DNA from: Gemmatimonadota bacterium
GTDB lineage: Bacteria > Gemmatimonadota > Gemmatimonadetes > Gemmatimonadales > Gemmatimonadaceae
DNA: 64,000 nucleotides
Assembly: GCA_020161135.1 (NCBI GenBank)
Contig: JAIUOB010000006.1
Location: 35,968 to 99,967 of the forward strand
Direction: 5' to 3'
The translations under genes were made by a program, and so were the position numbers. Of this stretch, positions 23,829 to 27,523 are shown piece after piece. Positions within the stretch are counted from its first letter, which is position 1; every line of letters starts with the position of its first letter. The notes below the pieces were generated by a model. The model saw only the letters and a program-made list of their open reading frames with translations. It was not told where the DNA came from and made no database searches.

Positions 23829-25171
23829 GTCGCCACCTCGCGTGATACAGGGGTCTGCCAGGCGCGCGCCGCCGCGGCGTGGGCCGGCAGCCCTTCGGCG
23901 TCGGCGAACGTGCCCACGCTGTCCGCCAGCCGCGCGGCGGCGTCGGGCGTCACCTCCTGCCACGTCGTCCAGCGCACGAAGTCGAGCGTCGACAGCCCCG
24001 AGTAGCTGCGCGCCGCGCCTGCCGTGGGCAGCACATGATTGGCGCCCGTCATGTAGTCGCCGAACGCCACGCTGCTCGACGCCCCCACGAACACGGTGCC
24101 CGCACAGCGCAGCGCGGCCAGCGCGTCGGAGCGCGCATCATCACGAACCACCAGCAGCAGGTGCTCTGCGGCCCACGCGTTCGCGAAGGCGATGGCGTCG
24201 GCGCACGACGGCACGCGCACGATGCCACCGCGCGCGGCCAGCGCCGCGCGCGCGATGTCGGCGCGGGGCGCGGCGTCCAGCAGCGCGGCCAGCGCGGTCT
24301 CCACCTGCGCCGCCAGTGCCGTGCACGCGCCCGCATCGTCCGCGAGCACGCACACCACGGCCGCGTCCGGGTCGTGCTCCGCCTGCGCCAGCATCTCGCG
24401 GGCGATCACCTGGGCGTCGGCCGTCGCGTCCCCCAGCACCAATAGCTCGCTCGGCCCGGCCGGCGCGTCGATCGCGACGTGTGCGACCAGTTGCACCTTG
24501 GCCTCGGCCACCCACGCGTTCCCCGGCCCCACGATGCGATCGACGCGCGGCACACTCTCGGTGCCCAGGGCCATGGCGGCAATGGCGCCTGCACCGCCAA
24601 CGGCAAACACGCGATCGACGCCAGCCAGCGCGGCCGCCGCGAGCACCACATCGCTGGGCAGGCCGTCCGGGCCCGGCGGCGAACAGACGATCACTTCGCT
24701 CACGCCGGCAACGCGCGCGGGAATCGCGCCCATGAGCAGCGAGCTCGGATACGCGGCGCGTCCGCCGGGCGCGTACACCCCCACGCGCTGCAGCGGGTCG
24801 GGGCGACGCCCCACCGTGATGCCGGGTTCGGGCGTGCACACCGTCGCCTGCGGACGAAAGGCCTCGTGCACCGCCGCGATGTTGCGCGCAGCACGCTCGA
24901 GCGCCGCACGCACGGGGGCGTCGAGACGCGTGAGCGCCGCGTCCCACGCGGCGCGGGGCACTTCGAGCGAGGTCAGGGTGGCGCCGTCGAACGTGCGCGC
25001 GAACTGCCGCAGCGCGGCGTCACCGTCGGTGCGCACCGCCTCGATGAGTTCGGCCGTGCGGGCGCGTACGCCCGGATCGGTCGTGGACTGTCGATCGTCG
25101 AGCGCGCGACGCGCTGACGCATCGAGCGCGGACAGCGGGCCACGGGCCCGCAACGCGACGGGCTGACTCAT
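23825..25171 (-). CDS. hisD: Histidinol dehydrogenase
   Basis: GVYAPGGRAAYPSS, IVGPGNAWV, IDAPAGPSE, QAEHD, AAEHL, GDYMTGANHVLPT, EGLPAHA. Confidence 0.96.
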   Translation of the reverse strand: MSQPVALRARGPLSALDASARRALDDRQSTTDPGVRARTAELIEAVRTDGDAALRQFARTFDGATLTSLEVPRAAWDAALTRLDAPVRAALERAARNIAAVHEAFRPQATVCTPEPGITVGRRPDPLQRVGVYAPGGRAAYPSSLLMGAIPARVAGVSEVIVCSPPGPDGLPSDVVLAAAALAGVDRVFAVGGAGAIAAMALGTESVPRVDRIVGPGNAWVAEAKVQLVAHVAIDAPAGPSELLVLGDATADAQVIAREMLAQAEHDPDAAVVCVLADDAGACTALAAQVETALAALLDAAPRADIARAALAARGGIVRVPSCADAIAFANAWAAEHLLLVVRDDARSDALAALRCAGTVFVGASSSVAFGDYMTGANHVLPTAGAARSYSGLSTLDFVRWTTWQEVTPDAAARLADSVGTFADAEGLPAHAAAARAWQTPVSREVAT

Positions 25172-26058
25172 GGCACCAACCGCTCGATGCGCGTCACGAG
25201 AATCCCCTCGGCGCCCACCGCGCGCAGCTGCGAGATGGTGCGGTAGATCGTGTCGGCGCCCACCACCGCGTGCACCGCCACGAAGCCGCCGCCGTTGGCG
25301 ATGTCGATGACCGTCGGGCCATTGAGCCCGGGCAGCACGCCACGCACCGCGTCGAGCGCCGCCTTCGGGACGTTGGCCATGAGGTAGCGCTGGCCGCGCG
25401 CGCGAATGACGCTCGCCAACGCAATCACGAGGTCGTCGAGCGCGCGTCCGCGTTCGCCCGCATCGGGCGGCGGAAACCCCTCGGCCGTGATGAGCCGCGC
25501 CGTCGAACGGAGCACCGTCTCGACCTCGCGCAGCCCGTTCACCCGCAGCGTCGACCCCGTGCTGGTGAGGTCGACGACCACGTCCGCGATGCCGAGGTGC
25601 GGTGCGATCTCGGCCGCCCCCGACACTGGCACCACGTCGACCGGCAGCCCCTGCGCCTCGAAGAAGCGGCGGGTCACGCCCGGAAACACTGTCGCCACCC
25701 GCACCGGCCGGCCGGCCGTCGCCGCGCTGGCCCGCATGTCGTCGAGGGTGCGGATCCCCGCGTCCTCCCGCGCCGCCACCACCAGCCGGCAGCGCCCGAA
25801 CCCGAGGTCGAGGTGGGTCGTGAGGGGGCGGCCGGACTCGTTCACGAGGTCCCAGCCGGTCACCCCCACGTCGGCGGCGCCGTCGGCCACGAACTCGGGG
25901 ATGTCCTGGGCGCGGACGAAGATGGCCTCGAACTCCCCGCCCAGGGAGGCGGACAGGGCCCGTTCACCGGACGACCGGACTTCGAGGCCGGCGTCGGTGA
26001 ACAGTTCGCGGGTGTCTTCGGCCAGACGCCCCTTGTTGGGGAGGGCGATGCGGAGCAT
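25168..26058 (-). CDS. hisG: ATP phosphoribosyltransferase, long form
   Basis: IALPNKGRL, RAQDIP, DVGVTGWD, DLTSTGSTLRVNGL, C-terminal domain (LPGLNGPTV...GAEGILV). Confidence 0.95.
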   Translation of the reverse strand: MLRIALPNKGRLAEDTRELFTDAGLEVRSSGERALSASLGGEFEAIFVRAQDIPEFVADGAADVGVTGWDLVNESGRPLTTHLDLGFGRCRLVVAAREDAGIRTLDDMRASAATAGRPVRVATVFPGVTRRFFEAQGLPVDVVPVSGAAEIAPHLGIADVVVDLTSTGSTLRVNGLREVETVLRSTARLITAEGFPPPDAGERGRALDDLVIALASVIRARGQRYLMANVPKAALDAVRGVLPGLNGPTVIDIANGGGFVAVHAVVGADTIYRTISQLRAVGAEGILVTRIERLVP

Positions 26059-26100
26059 GACGACAGGGGGTGCGGGCGGCCGGGGCCGCCATGGGACAAC

Positions 26101-26130
26101 AAAAAAGGCCCGTCCGGAGTGGACGGGCCT
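26101..26130 (-). terminator. Intrinsic terminator of the his leader (attenuator)
   Basis: mRNA reads AGGCCCGUCC-ACUCC-GGACGGGCCU-UUUUU: a 10-bp stem whose last U begins a run of six U, 42 nt before the hisG ATG. Confidence 0.9.
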
Positions 26131-26169
26131 GGGAGCGAGCGGCGATGTCAGGTCAGCGCGAGGCGCTGG

Positions 26170-26253
26170 TCACCATGGCATGCACGCACCGCCCCGACCC
26201 GTCGGGCCGTGGCCATGATGCGTGTGATGGTGGCGCGTCTGCGTGCTGAGCAT
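26170..26253 (-). CDS. hisL: His-rich attenuator leader peptide, 27 aa, MLSTQTRHHHTHHGHGPTGRGGACMPW
   Basis: Manual translation from ATG 26253 to TGA 26170; six His codons within eight; lies between the promoter and the terminator preceding hisG. Confidence 0.85.
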   Translation of the reverse strand: MLSTQTRHHHTHHGHGPTGRGGACMPW

Positions 26254-26262
26254 GAGCCGCTG

Positions 26263-26291
26263 AGGCTAGCCGGAACCGGACAGGGCGTCAA
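26263..26291 (-). promoter_or_regulatory. Sigma70-type promoter of the his leader/operon
   Basis: TTGACG (26291-26286), 17-nt spacer, TAGCCT (26268-26263); 9 nt separate the -10 from the leader ATG. Confidence 0.65.
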
Positions 26292-26328
26292 GGGCGTTTT
26301 CCCTGAGAGCCCTTGGCGCTGCCGGGGC

Positions 26329-26346
26329 TTGTGAATAAGTTCACGA
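26329..26346. promoter_or_regulatory. Palindromic transcription-factor site (Rex-like or CRP/FNR-like)
   Basis: TTGTGAA-TAAG-TTCACGA: 13/14 to Rex consensus TTGTGAA-N4-TTCACAA and 9/10 to CRP TGTGA-N6-TCACA; AT-rich patch in a GC-rich divergent intergenic region. Confidence 0.55.
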
Positions 26347-26438
26347 AGTCCGCAGGGCCCTGCGGATGGGGGCGCCCCGACTGGGGGCCTCAGGCAGCAC
26401 AGGAAATTTCCGATCTAGGCTCTGGAGGCCTGACAAAC

Positions 26439-26939
26439 ATGCGGTTTCTCGGCTTTGCGGTGGTGACCGGCGCGGCGGTTCTGCTCGGCGCGTGCGGTGG
26501 TGGGGAGAAGGCCCCTGAGGCGGACACGACGCAGCCCTCGGCGGCGGCGGCGGCTCCGGCTCCTGAGGCGGCTCCGGCGGCGGCCGGTGCGGCGGCCATC
26601 ACGGGCACGACGCACGAAGTGAAGATGGTCGGTGACGCGCAGGGCTATCGTTTCGAGCCCGCCGAGATCACGATCAAGGCCGGCGACGGCATCAAGTTCA
26701 CGATGGTCAGCGGCGGCCCGCACAACGTGGCGTTCGACCCGGCCACGATCCCGGCCGCGGCGAAGTCGGTCCTCCTGGCCAACATGCCGGAGCAGGCGGG
26801 CGAGCTGTCGGGCAAGATGCTCCTCAACGCCAACGAGTCGTACACGATCTCGTTCGCGGGCGTCCCGGCTGGCACGTACGATTTCCACTGCACGCCGCAC
26901 CTCGCGATGAACATGAAGGGCAAGGTCACGGTCCAGTAA
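26439..26939 (+). CDS. Plastocyanin/azurin-family blue-copper lipoprotein
   Basis: Lipobox LLGAC, Ala/Pro linker, type-1 Cu ligands HNVAF and YDFHCTPHLAMNM; GGAGG RBS. Confidence 0.9.
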   Translation: MRFLGFAVVTGAAVLLGACGGGEKAPEADTTQPSAAAAAPAPEAAPAAAGAAAITGTTHEVKMVGDAQGYRFEPAEITIKAGDGIKFTMVSGGPHNVAFDPATIPAAAKSVLLANMPEQAGELSGKMLLNANESYTISFAGVPAGTYDFHCTPHLAMNMKGKVTVQ

Positions 26940-26961
26940 GCGGACCGCGTTCCAACGCACG

Positions 26962-26993
26962 ACGGGGGCCGGCGCACACGCGCCGGCCCCCGT
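26962..26993 (+). terminator. Terminator-like hairpin after the cupredoxin gene
   Basis: 14-bp perfect stem ACGGGGGCCGGCGC / GCGCCGGCCCCCGT, loop ACAC, followed by TTGCTT. Confidence 0.7.
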
Positions 26994-27029
26994 TTGCTTC
27001 CGTGCGGGCCGCTGCCTAACCTGCCTCGC

Positions 27030-27464
27030 ATGTGGGCCGACACTCTCCTGACGCTCGAACGCGGACACCTGCAGCGCCTGCTGCTGTGGGCCGCCGCCAG
27101 CGTCGTCATCGGCACCGCACTGCTCGCCCTGCTCGCGGCACGTCGCTCGGCCGCGCCGCTGCTGCGGCACTTCGCCATCCAGTGCATCGCCTGGGGGCTG
27201 GTCGACGCCGCCATCGTGGGCTGGGCCTGGCGTGGGCTCGCCTATCGCGACTTCGCCGGCGTGCAGAAGCTGCTCAACATCCTCTGGCTGAACGTCGGCC
27301 TCGACGCGGGGTACGCCGCCGTCGGCATCACCATCGCGCTGCTCGGCTGGCGCTGGGGCGCACGACTTGGCGCCGTCGGCGCCGGGGTGGGCGTCGTGCT
27401 GCAGGGTCTCGTCCTCGCCCTGCTCGACCTGCGCCTCATTGCGCTCGTGGGTCCGCTGCGCTGA
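27030..27464 (+). CDS. Hypothetical four-TM membrane protein
   Basis: Four hydrophobic segments; WGLVDAAI and LWLNVGLDAGY look like conserved motifs; family not assigned. Confidence 0.7.
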   Translation: MWADTLLTLERGHLQRLLLWAAASVVIGTALLALLAARRSAAPLLRHFAIQCIAWGLVDAAIVGWAWRGLAYRDFAGVQKLLNILWLNVGLDAGYAAVGITIALLGWRWGARLGAVGAGVGVVLQGLVLALLDLRLIALVGPLR

Positions 27465-27523
27465 TCGTCCCGTCGGCTGCCTCGATTCGCATCGCATCGT
27501 CTCACCGCTCTCGCTGACCGATC

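Follow-up and report, generated by a model that had tools for sequence, protein, structure and literature searches.

The region upstream of hisG in the Gemmatimonadota genome studied here very probably constitutes a histidine-responsive, ribosome-mediated transcription attenuator of the nine-gene hisGDCHABFN-IE operon. Judging from its sequence, this attenuator very probably combines the classical logic with membership of a new family, and it appears to be leaderless. The preliminary description of this locus had proposed a ribosome-stalling histidine attenuator preceding hisG, in a genome thought to belong to Gemmatimonadota. The first of these proposals is supported by the folds obtained with masked ribosome footprints, by the conservation of the His codons, by compensatory changes and by complementarity tests, and the second was correct, the closest hisG loci found by comparison carrying the name Gemmatimonas sp.

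All the coordinates given here are those of the window, i.e., the whole 64-kb stretch of DNA analyzed, and all the features of the locus are located on the minus strand. The promoter consists of a -35 box, TTGACG (26291-26286), read directly from the sequence, and a -10 box of the TANNNT type, TAGCCT (26268-26263), which are separated by a 17-nt spacer; the -10 box lies 9 nt 5' of the leader ATG. This promoter was not flagged by the consensus promoter scan because TAGCCT matches TATAAT weakly. The leader ORF (26253-26170, with its ATG at 26253) comprises 27 codons plus TGA (MLSTQTRHHHTHHGHGPTGRGGACMPW). Its codons 8-15 (HHHTHHGH, 26232-26209), which include the six regulatory His codons, form segment 1, which is paired with segment 2 when the full-length leader is folded. 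Directly 3' of the last His codon is a small hairpin, CGGCCC-GAC-GGGUCG (26209-26195, -8.9 kcal/mol), which in the predicted structures masks the antiterminator strand and imitates the arms of the terminator. Segment 2, composed of GACGGGUC and GGGGCGGUGCGUGCAUGCCAUGGUG (26203-26171), corresponds to the 3' portion of the leader ORF, and segment 3 (26153-26122), delimited from the predicted list of pairs, consists of a variable stretch and the terminator 5' arm GGCCCGUC. The intrinsic terminator (26130-26100, -21.6 kcal/mol) has a 10-bp stem including eight G-C pairs (26130-26121 with 26115-26106), a 5-nt loop (ACUCC) and a T6 tract giving the U-run (26105-26100), and it is the only terminator-like site between positions 25000 and 27500. 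The promoter, the 27-codon ORF and the 10-bp terminator with its U-run are all situated exactly where the preliminary description had located them. The first gene of the operon, hisG, encoding the long-form ATP phosphoribosyltransferase (26058-25168; TIGR00070, E 1e-62, and TIGR03455), starts at 26058, 39 nt 3' of the terminator. It is followed by hisD, hisC, hisH, hisA, hisB, hisF, hisN, and hisIE (25171-18671), which were identified from NCBIfam matches, the starts of hisB, hisN, and hisIE being approximate. The leader short ORF and the terminator are both absent from the present annotation.

Other genomes also carry the element. Using a covariance model, strong copies were detected in 77 of the 301 Gemmatimonadota genomes sampled, 80 of the 201 Myxococcia genomes and 18 of the 121 genomes belonging to the phylum labelled Eisenbacteria. 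Wherever it was found, there was exactly one strong copy per genome, and across these three phylum-level groups it occurs only upstream of hisG. The hisG tree places the Myxococcota and the genomes labelled Eisenbacteria inside the diversity of Gemmatimonadota. The element forms a widespread family present in at least two phyla and probably in three. Known families did not account for it: no match was obtained in Rfam at the gathering thresholds in the whole window, RF00514 and the T-box RF00230 included, and at E values up to 10 no RF00514, T-box, riboswitch or other cis-regulatory family was found between positions 25900 and 26500. At this relaxed threshold the locus gave only matches to sRNA families, which were driven by the terminator and were attributed to chance. 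The literature on Gemmatimonadota or Myxococcus in combination with attenuators, leader peptides or leaderless transcripts yielded nothing relevant, and no publication describing the element was found.

In the genome under study, a second match to the covariance model (contig C2:682855-683003, 32 bits) was rejected as a second leader because it lacks His codons; it consists of the terminator only, with a near-identical stem, located 3' of a 60-aa membrane ORF. We also scanned the whole genome for short ORFs rich in one of the rarer amino acids and located 5' of a perfect-stem terminator, a strict procedure which may miss real cases. The present leader was the sole His-rich match and the sole match with a -10 box at a leaderless distance, and the WW- and T-rich matches were not convincing, since they lie at the ends of genes or precede unrelated ones. 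His-richness was rejected as a stand-alone statistic, since the six-frame translation of the genome contains 175 windows with at least five His in eight residues, and such windows are not rare in a GC-rich genome.

The regions upstream of related hisG genes contain a His-rich short ORF (at least four His in eight codons) in 104 of 110 cases, at a distance of 146-256 nt from hisG. In the 81 distinct leaders used for the codon and covariation analyses, five positions out of the six aligned ones hold His in 73-78 leaders and the sixth in 61, and the His codons vary by synonymous change alone, exchanges between CAC and CAT being frequent. The leader stop codon occurs at one aligned position in 51 of the 81 leaders and is spelled TGA (28 leaders), TAA (13) or TAG (10). 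The peptide motif HHHxHHxHGPTGRG is conserved, and the residues at the N and C termini are free to vary. The non-synonymous changes observed after the His codons (Pro to Leu or His, and Gly to Asp) retain the pairing of the small hairpin, which indicates that selection in this region acts on the RNA and not on the peptide. The interrupted run and the long tail beyond it, which had been listed among the weak points of the proposal, are indeed present, but they are conserved features of the design and not defects: the arrangement HHHxHHxH recurs among the homologs and the tail corresponds to segment 2.

The compensatory changes anticipated in relatives were found in both the protector hairpin and the terminator. 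In the protector helix (columns 34-41 with 79-87), they affect seven of the eight pairs, whereas the terminator stem is near-invariant in the 81 leaders, G-C pairs being replaced by A-U at the two outer pairs, and the U-run is kept throughout. The small hairpin (columns 52-56 with 61-65) is paired in most leaders, with exchanges between GU, GC, and AU. When the protector, the small hairpin and the terminator are considered together as the OFF structure, 88.8% of the cells are paired, as compared with 29-44% in the slid controls; 16 pairs are changed on both sides, in 93 cells as against 29 in the shuffles, and none of 500 shuffles reached any of these measures. The antiterminator core (columns 58-72 with 138-153) is paired in 80% of cases, a figure which drops to 34-53% with a slid partner. 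Its column-wise covariation is weak because the core is near-invariant and segment 3 aligns poorly, and an alignment-free duplex test was therefore used instead. For segment 2 paired with segment 3 of the same leader, the duplex energy amounts to -22.46 kcal/mol, compared with -18.80 ± 0.35 with permuted partners (0/20000), and for the His region paired with segment 2 of the same leader to -20.18 kcal/mol, compared with -17.83 ± 0.28 (0/20000). Both results stand when the analysis is confined to 27 representatives less than 50% identical in the variable region, 0-1 of 20000 permutations being as good. The mutually exclusive 1:2 and 2:3 complementarities are thus specific to each sequence across the homologs.

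The leader fold is more stable than 200 of 200 shuffled sequences (z = -3.85). Segment 2 is predicted to pair either with segment 1, forming the protector (-33.1 kcal/mol), or with segment 3, forming the antiterminator (-48.6 kcal/mol). The strands CAUCAUGGC (26220-26212) and GCCAUGGUG (26179-26171), put forward as the protector, occur at these positions and a protector does exist, but the predicted fold adopts a slightly different register, which includes the pairing of CACCAU with AUGGUG among others. The antiterminator proposed between GACGGGUC (26203-26196) and GGCCCGUC (26129-26122) was found to be the core of the predicted one. A second antiterminator helix suggested between 26193-26187 and 26147-26141 is, however, absent from the predicted fold, in which 26193-26187 pairs with 26139-26133.

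The effects of a ribosome were examined by masking its footprint and folding 80 leaders at equilibrium. Since the minimum-energy fold of full-length transcripts keeps the terminator under every mask, transcripts cut after the terminator 5' arm were used for the switch test; in the full-length fold, the terminator is present in 79 of the 80 homologous leaders. With a footprint on a His codon, the antiterminator core formed in 78 of the 80 cut leaders, whereas it formed in none of them with a footprint placed four codons beyond the last His. The predicted alternative folds are therefore those expected from the logic of a stalled ribosome: a ribosome located on the regulatory codons favours the antiterminator, and one that has moved past them does not. 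The core was still predicted in 45 of the 80 cut leaders with no ribosome and in 48 with a ribosome at the stop codon, this genome being one of them. As these two states are not cleanly OFF at equilibrium, the OFF state must rest on kinetics or on steric effects, with the local hairpin and the protector forming first. A ribosome stalled at the last His codon would moreover overlap part of the antiterminator strand. The same masking applied as a positive control to hisL of E. coli K-12 recovered the capture of the terminator arm by the known antiterminator, which switched only when the A site was on His codons 8-13 or Gln codon 5; there, unlike here, the free and stop-codon states were cleanly OFF.

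From these data we infer that the leader is translated and responds to histidine, and that its folding follows a kinetic order which may be outlined as follows. Needing no Shine-Dalgarno sequence, the ribosome would enter the nascent RNA at its 5' end. When charged tRNA-His is in short supply, it would stall on a His codon, the productive codons presumably being 8-13, and would occupy segment 1 together with the 5' arm of the small hairpin, leaving segment 2 (26203-26171) free. Once segment 3 emerges, segments 2 and 3 would zip together through their variable parts and the helix would extend into GACGGGUC/GGCCCGUC, capturing the terminator 5' arm, so that the polymerase would read through into hisG. 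When histidine is plentiful, the ribosome would proceed through segment 2 to the stop codon, and the small hairpin would close behind it, hiding GACGGGUC. Segment 2 would then be either covered by the ribosome or, after its departure, paired again with the His region; the terminator (26130-26106 plus the U-run) would form, and transcription would end 39 nt 5' of hisG.

The lack of a visible Shine-Dalgarno sequence had also been noted as a weakness, and it would be explained by a promoter geometry which is itself conserved. The combination of TTGACN, a 16-18 nt spacer and TANNNT recurs in 84 of the 95 distinct upstream regions, and in 81 of the 84 promoters found, the -10 box is separated from the start codon by 5-11 nt (mode 7). 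This short distance leaves no room for a Shine-Dalgarno sequence and implies that the mRNA is leaderless or nearly so, transcription probably starting at the leader ATG or within a few bases of it. Leaderless initiation may even be integral to the switch, although we put this forward tentatively and find it somewhat less probable than the contrary: the only entry site for the pioneer ribosome would be the 5'-terminal AUG at the moment of its emergence from the polymerase, so that translation would be kept in step with transcription and the pause hairpin and Shine-Dalgarno sequence of the enterobacterial systems could be dispensed with, and the promoter, leader and hisG would then make up a self-contained cassette moved between phyla.

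Other explanations can be proposed for a terminator and a His-rich short ORF located at this position. The attenuator might be real and yet have a protein, tRNA-His or a small molecule as its sensor, in the style of HutP, a T-box or a riboswitch, or it might depend on the action of Rho on an untranslated leader, the His codons being secondary. The fact that the equilibrium folds give no clean OFF state for the free RNA or for a ribosome at the stop codon leaves room for another factor of this kind, and the near-invariant blocks GGCCCG, CGGGUC, GGCCCGUCC, and GGACGGGCC could in principle mark a binding site. The invariance of these four blocks is nevertheless explained by the need for each of them to pair with two partners, and the searches at E up to 10 mentioned above revealed no T-box, riboswitch or other cis-regulatory match. 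An in-frame ATG, six positions varying between CAC and CAT only, a stop codon conserved in position but spelled in three ways, and a leaderless geometry are features of translation, none of which is predicted by a binding site, and we consider a sensor other than the ribosome to be improbable.

It seems even less probable that the product of the short ORF is a small His-rich protein with a function of its own, such as metal binding, and that this ORF has its own terminator and merely adjoins hisG, the his operon being transcribed from a separate promoter. Metal binding is possible for His-rich peptides and the motif is conserved, but beyond the His codons the conservation follows RNA pairing rather than amino acid identity, and the terminal residues are free to vary. 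The ORF occurs solely upstream of hisG, once per genome, in three phylum-level groups, and the 39 nt between the terminator and hisG leave scant space for a separate hisG promoter. Control might also be exerted on the translation of hisG instead of, or besides, transcription termination, given that the leaderless sensory short ORFs of mycobacteria unmask a ribosome-binding site (10.1101/834739). The GC-rich 10-bp hairpin with its U6 tract, which is located 39 nt 5' of the hisG ATG, clear of the hisG start region, and the conservation of the U-run in the 81 leaders argue against this mechanism, to which we attach as little likelihood as to a small protein. Ribosome-mediated transcription attenuation in response to histidine is therefore the reading we retain.

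Control of the his operon by leader-peptide attenuation is textbook knowledge. Like hisL of E. coli and Salmonella (Rfam His_leader, RF00514), the present element has a short ORF with clustered His codons, a terminator before hisG and alternative pairings of the 1:2, 2:3, and 3:4 types, and masking a footprint at the His codons flips both to the antiterminator. The two show no homology in sequence or structure, with no match even at E up to 10. Instead of the 16 codons and seven consecutive His of hisL, the present leader has 27 codons and an interrupted HHHxHHxH; it lacks a Shine-Dalgarno sequence, its promoter geometry implying a leaderless start, and it contains a small hairpin imitating the terminator arms, while the OFF state predicted for its free RNA is less clean. 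RF00514 has been reported to be essentially gammaproteobacterial (PMC3766115, PMC9413887). In Firmicutes, his attenuators have been predicted in the Bacillus cereus group, Peptostreptococcaceae and Erysipelotrichales (PMC9413887), and a His leader has been described before hisS/hisZ in bacilli (PMC2965389); neither of the latter two papers mentions Gemmatimonadota or Myxococcota (PMC9413887, PMC2965389). As with the present leader, comparative genomics led to their discovery and they lie outside Rfam; they represent independent leader-peptide attenuators beyond the Proteobacteria, but they belong to other phyla and, judging from the descriptions given in these papers, are unrelated in sequence (PMC9413887, PMC2965389). 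In mycobacteria, poly-cysteine short ORFs serve as leaderless attenuators (Canestrari et al., 10.1101/834739): a sensory short ORF is translated from a leaderless mRNA, as the promoter geometry suggests for the present leader, and ribosome stalling on the codons of the amino acid of the pathway remodels the downstream RNA. The structure regulated here is, however, an intrinsic terminator with a U-run 39 nt 5' of the hisG ATG, and both the amino acid and the phylum differ. The histidine T-box leaders (RF00230) of the his genes of Lactococcus lactis and Corynebacterium glutamicum likewise sense the charging of tRNA-His at the RNA level and choose between a terminator and an antiterminator. Uncharged tRNA is bound by the T-box itself, and translation plays no part, whereas the in-frame His codons of the present leader point to the ribosome as the sensor.

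The documented range of his leader-peptide attenuation comprises Gammaproteobacteria and a few predicted cases in Firmicutes. The element described here would achieve the same logic with an unrelated sequence, in the form of a single-copy family present in many of the genomes sampled from the class Gemmatimonadetes, and also in the large-genome Myxococcia. The Myxococcia include genetically tractable myxobacteria such as Corallococcus. In Gemmatimonadota, it would be the first concrete regulatory RNA for amino acid biosynthesis. The family is a ready candidate for Rfam, which would improve the annotation of the short ORF and the terminator, and it provides a test case as to whether a leaderless start can substitute for the pause-and-release synchronisation of the classical attenuators. 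It also offers an example of a regulatory leader which appears to have travelled between phyla, by horizontal transfer, together with its gene.

The hisG gene (TIGR00070, E 1e-62), which starts at 26058 on the minus strand, heads an operon consisting of hisG, hisD, hisC, hisH, hisA, hisB, hisF, hisN, and hisIE and extending to approximately 18671. In the upstream sequence of the same strand, a -35 box (TTGACG, 26291–26286) and a -10 box (TAGCCT, 26268–26263) can be read, separated by a 17-nt spacer. The -10 box lies 9 nt before the ATG (26253) of a leader ORF (26253–26170) encoding MLSTQTRHHHTHHGHGPTGRGGACMPW and ending with TGA, and the terminator AGGCCCGTCC-ACTCC-GGACGGGCCT followed by TTTTTT (26130–26100) is the sole terminator-like site within 25000–27500. 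The leader RNA was predicted to fold with an energy of -83.6 kcal/mol (z = -3.85), beating 200 of 200 dinucleotide shuffles. No Rfam family matched any part of the window at gathering scores, or the his leader locus at E values up to 10. The coordinates in the preliminary description all proved exact when checked on the minus-strand sequence, and its guess that the DNA comes from a Gemmatimonadota was right: the nearest named-genome hisG loci are those of a Gemmatimonas sp. and of Gemmatimonadaceae MAGs, the proteins being 75–83% identical.

Of 95 distinct upstream regions, 84 contain TTGACN and TANNNT boxes with a 16–18-nt spacer, and the end of the -10 box is 5–11 nt (mode 7) from the start codon in 81 of these 84 promoters. 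At this distance a Shine-Dalgarno sequence has no room, and transcription likely starts at or just before the leader AUG. The Myxococcota copies show the same promoter geometry, with a GTG start. No recognisable Shine-Dalgarno sequence was detected upstream of the hisG ATG in the source Gemmatimonas genome (26040–26062) or in most of the relatives whose hisG upstream regions were aligned.

Between the his promoter and a divergent plastocyanin-like lipoprotein gene (26439–26939, plus strand, TIGR02656), there is an inverted repeat, GTGAA-CTTA-TTCAC (26328–26346), adjoined by the GC-rich palindrome CCGCAGGGCCCTGCGG (26350–26365). Several distant relatives (L068, L074, L076, L083, L102, and L107) keep the two as TTGTGAAnnTATTCACAA, and the repeat fits the Rex operator consensus, TTGTGAAnnnnTTCACAA.

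Conservation was first judged from 25 relatives (members of the same genus plus two genomes from another family): the alignment of their hisG upstream regions retains the promoter boxes, the ATG a few bases past the -10 box, the His block, GGCCCGACGGGTCGGGG, and the terminator. A His-rich short ORF (at least 4 His per 8 codons) is present 146–256 nt 5' of hisG in 104 of 110 loci, including five from Myxococcota (Pyxidicoccus, Corallococcus, and Hyalangium) and two from the three genomes labelled Candidatus Eisenbacteria, namely the two whose contig contains the full leader. The motif HHHHAHHR.GP.G and a GGCCCGTCC...GGACGGGCC terminator are common to the Myxococcota and Eisenbacteria-labelled leaders. 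When 81 distinct leaders were aligned, codons 8, 9, 10, 12, and 15 proved to encode His in 73–78 leaders and codon 13 in 61; CAC and CAT are freely exchanged at these positions (at codon 10, CAT in 45 and CAC in 30), and a stop codon occupies one aligned position in 51 leaders (TGA in 28, TAA in 13, and TAG in 10). Past the His block, the codons show non-synonymous changes (Pro to Leu or His, Gly to Asp) which preserve the hairpin. This pattern of exchanges, together with the shared position of the stop, shows selection at the codon level on the His codons and reading frame, and at the RNA level on the remainder of the leader. At locus L068, in a Gemmatimonadales MAG, the promoter, hairpin, and terminator are retained and the leader ORF carries only three His codons (MSALGYHHARHGRGPSGRG...); this attenuator may be decaying or may have been retuned. 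L021 and L064 carry a variant leader, in which about 40 nt are inserted past the His block and the tail differs (MRPRALQTHHQHHRHHPAARAAGTER).

In the consensus and per-sequence folds, the OFF structure comprises three elements: a long protector helix pairing the His region with the 3' part of the leader ORF (-33.1 kcal/mol in the source genome), a small hairpin, GGCCC-GAC-GGGUC, at its tip (-8.9 kcal/mol), and the terminator (-21.6 kcal/mol). In the 81-leader alignment, 88.8% of the cells at the OFF pairs are paired vs 29–44% with slid partners, two-sided changes at 16 OFF pairs amount to 93 cells vs 29 ± 6 in shuffles, and none of 500 shuffles attained any of the five measures. The terminator stem is near-invariant, its two outer pairs showing exchanges from G-C to A-U. 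When transcripts were ended after the 5' arm of the terminator, the ON fold was a single long helix (-48.6 kcal/mol in the source genome), in which GACGGGUC and the rest of segment 2 (26203–26171) pair with segment 3 (26153–26122), taking in GGCCCGUC of the terminator arm. In the invariant core of this antiterminator, 80% of the cells are paired vs 34–53% with slid partners, and column-wise covariation is small. Because segment 3 aligns poorly, duplex energies were compared without any alignment, the partners being permuted among homologues. Segment 2 gave -22.46 kcal/mol with its own segment 3 vs -18.80 ± 0.35 with permuted ones, and the His region gave -20.18 kcal/mol with its own segment 2 vs -17.83 ± 0.28 with permuted ones (0 of 20000 permutations in both cases). 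Both results stand among 27 representatives less than 50% identical in the variable region (0 and 1 of 20000). Segment 2 is thus under selection for two alternative pairings, which is the signature of a switch.

The effect of a stalled ribosome was modeled by making the nucleotides from -15 to +12 around the A site unpairable in transcripts ended after the 5' arm of the terminator. With the mask on a His codon, the antiterminator core formed in 78 of 80 leaders (73 of 80 when no more than two of the His codons were allowed to fail), vs none of the 80 with the mask four codons beyond the last His. In these folds, codons 8–13 are the productive stall sites, because a ribosome stalled at the final His codon would itself occlude some of the antiterminator strand. 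In the positive control, hisL of E. coli K-12, the terminator arm joined the known antiterminator only with the A site on His codons 8–13 or Gln codon 5. Full-length folds contained the terminator in 79 of 80 leaders and the protector in 64, and, whatever part is masked, the best fold of the full-length RNA always has the terminator. At equilibrium, the core still formed in 45 of 80 leaders when no ribosome was placed, and in 48 of 80 when one sat on the stop codon, the source genome being among them; under this model, the OFF state must be kinetic. The protector and small hairpin would form well ahead of the synthesis of segment 3, which would have no partner to zip onto because a ribosome at the stop codon would cover most of segment 2, and the 3' arm of the terminator would emerge a few nucleotides after the 5' arm.

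A covariance model built from the 81-leader alignment with the OFF structure matched 77 of 301 Gemmatimonadota genomes (13 of the 14 other members of the genus, the greater part of the family, and parts of three further families), 80 of 201 in the class Myxococcia, mainly those of 9–13 Mb, and 18 of 121 in the phylum of an Eisenbacteria-labelled genome, with exactly one copy in nearly every matching genome. The hisG proteins of L086, L090, L091, L097, and L110 (Myxococcota) and L073, L080, and L100 (Eisenbacteria-labelled), with the homologous leader attached, are 67–72% identical to the Gemmatimonas protein. In a quick hisG tree, with sampling biased towards the query, very long outgroup branches, and weak rooting, the five Myxococcota fall in a single clade (support 100) inside the Gemmatimonadota diversity, where the Eisenbacteria-labelled sequences lie as well. 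This nesting, with the leaders attached, suggests joint transfer of the leader and hisG from one phylum to another. L026 and L029, from other families of the same order, have a hisG of a different type (only 37–38% identical), yet each has a His-rich short ORF (MRSGLRHHVHHHHPLTGRG and MTRTSSHRHHHGHSVHGG) behind a TTGAC-type promoter; the hairpin differs (GC-rich GCCGGCC...GGCCGGC), and its U-run is evident at one locus and broken at the other. These leaders possibly belong to a second, diverged family.

The source genome gave one strong match to the model (127 bits) and a weak one (contig C2:682855-683003, L112), which was rejected as a leader since it covers only a terminator; its near-identical stem, GGCCCGTCC-CCTGGT-GACGGGCC, lies 3' of an unannotated hydrophobic ORF of 60 aa (MPFFSYPANADWLLPILKLPLTLISLIFQGILAVGPIGQIAIIAIVIALFSRNIMGPARA) and 5' of a serine/threonine-kinase-like gene. 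His-rich windows are common when this GC-rich genome is translated in six frames, 175 of them having at least 5 His in 8. Even so, in a scan for short ORFs enriched in a single rarer amino acid and lying 5' of a terminator, the leader before hisG was the only His match and the only one with a -10 box at a leaderless distance; none of the other matches lies upstream of a biosynthetic gene.

The leader shares the logic of the enterobacterial hisL attenuator and is not a member of the hisL family RF00514, to which it gave no match at E values up to 10. Histidine attenuators have been published in gammaproteobacteria (PMC3766115), predicted in three Firmicutes lineages (PMC9413887), and described before hisS/hisZ in bacilli (PMC2965389), and none was found in a survey of Actinobacteria (PMC1262725). 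The leaderless short ORFs sensing cysteine in mycobacteria act instead on a ribosome-binding site (10.1101/834739). A full-text search for attenuators or leader peptides in Gemmatimonadota or Myxococcus yielded nothing relevant, although subscription journals were mostly outside its scope and absence is thus unproven. The conserved His codons and compensatory pair changes in related hisG upstream regions, the dual pairing, and the masked folds (78/80 vs 0/80) bear out the histidine attenuator put forward in the preliminary description. The element before hisG is very probably a true and conserved histidine attenuator that works by the classical logic; its RNA family is absent from Rfam, apparently leaderless, and spread over no fewer than two phyla, probably three. 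As the mechanism is of a textbook class, the surprise is moderate; what gives the finding its value is that the family is new, together with its range, its apparently leaderless design, and its apparent co-transfer with hisG.
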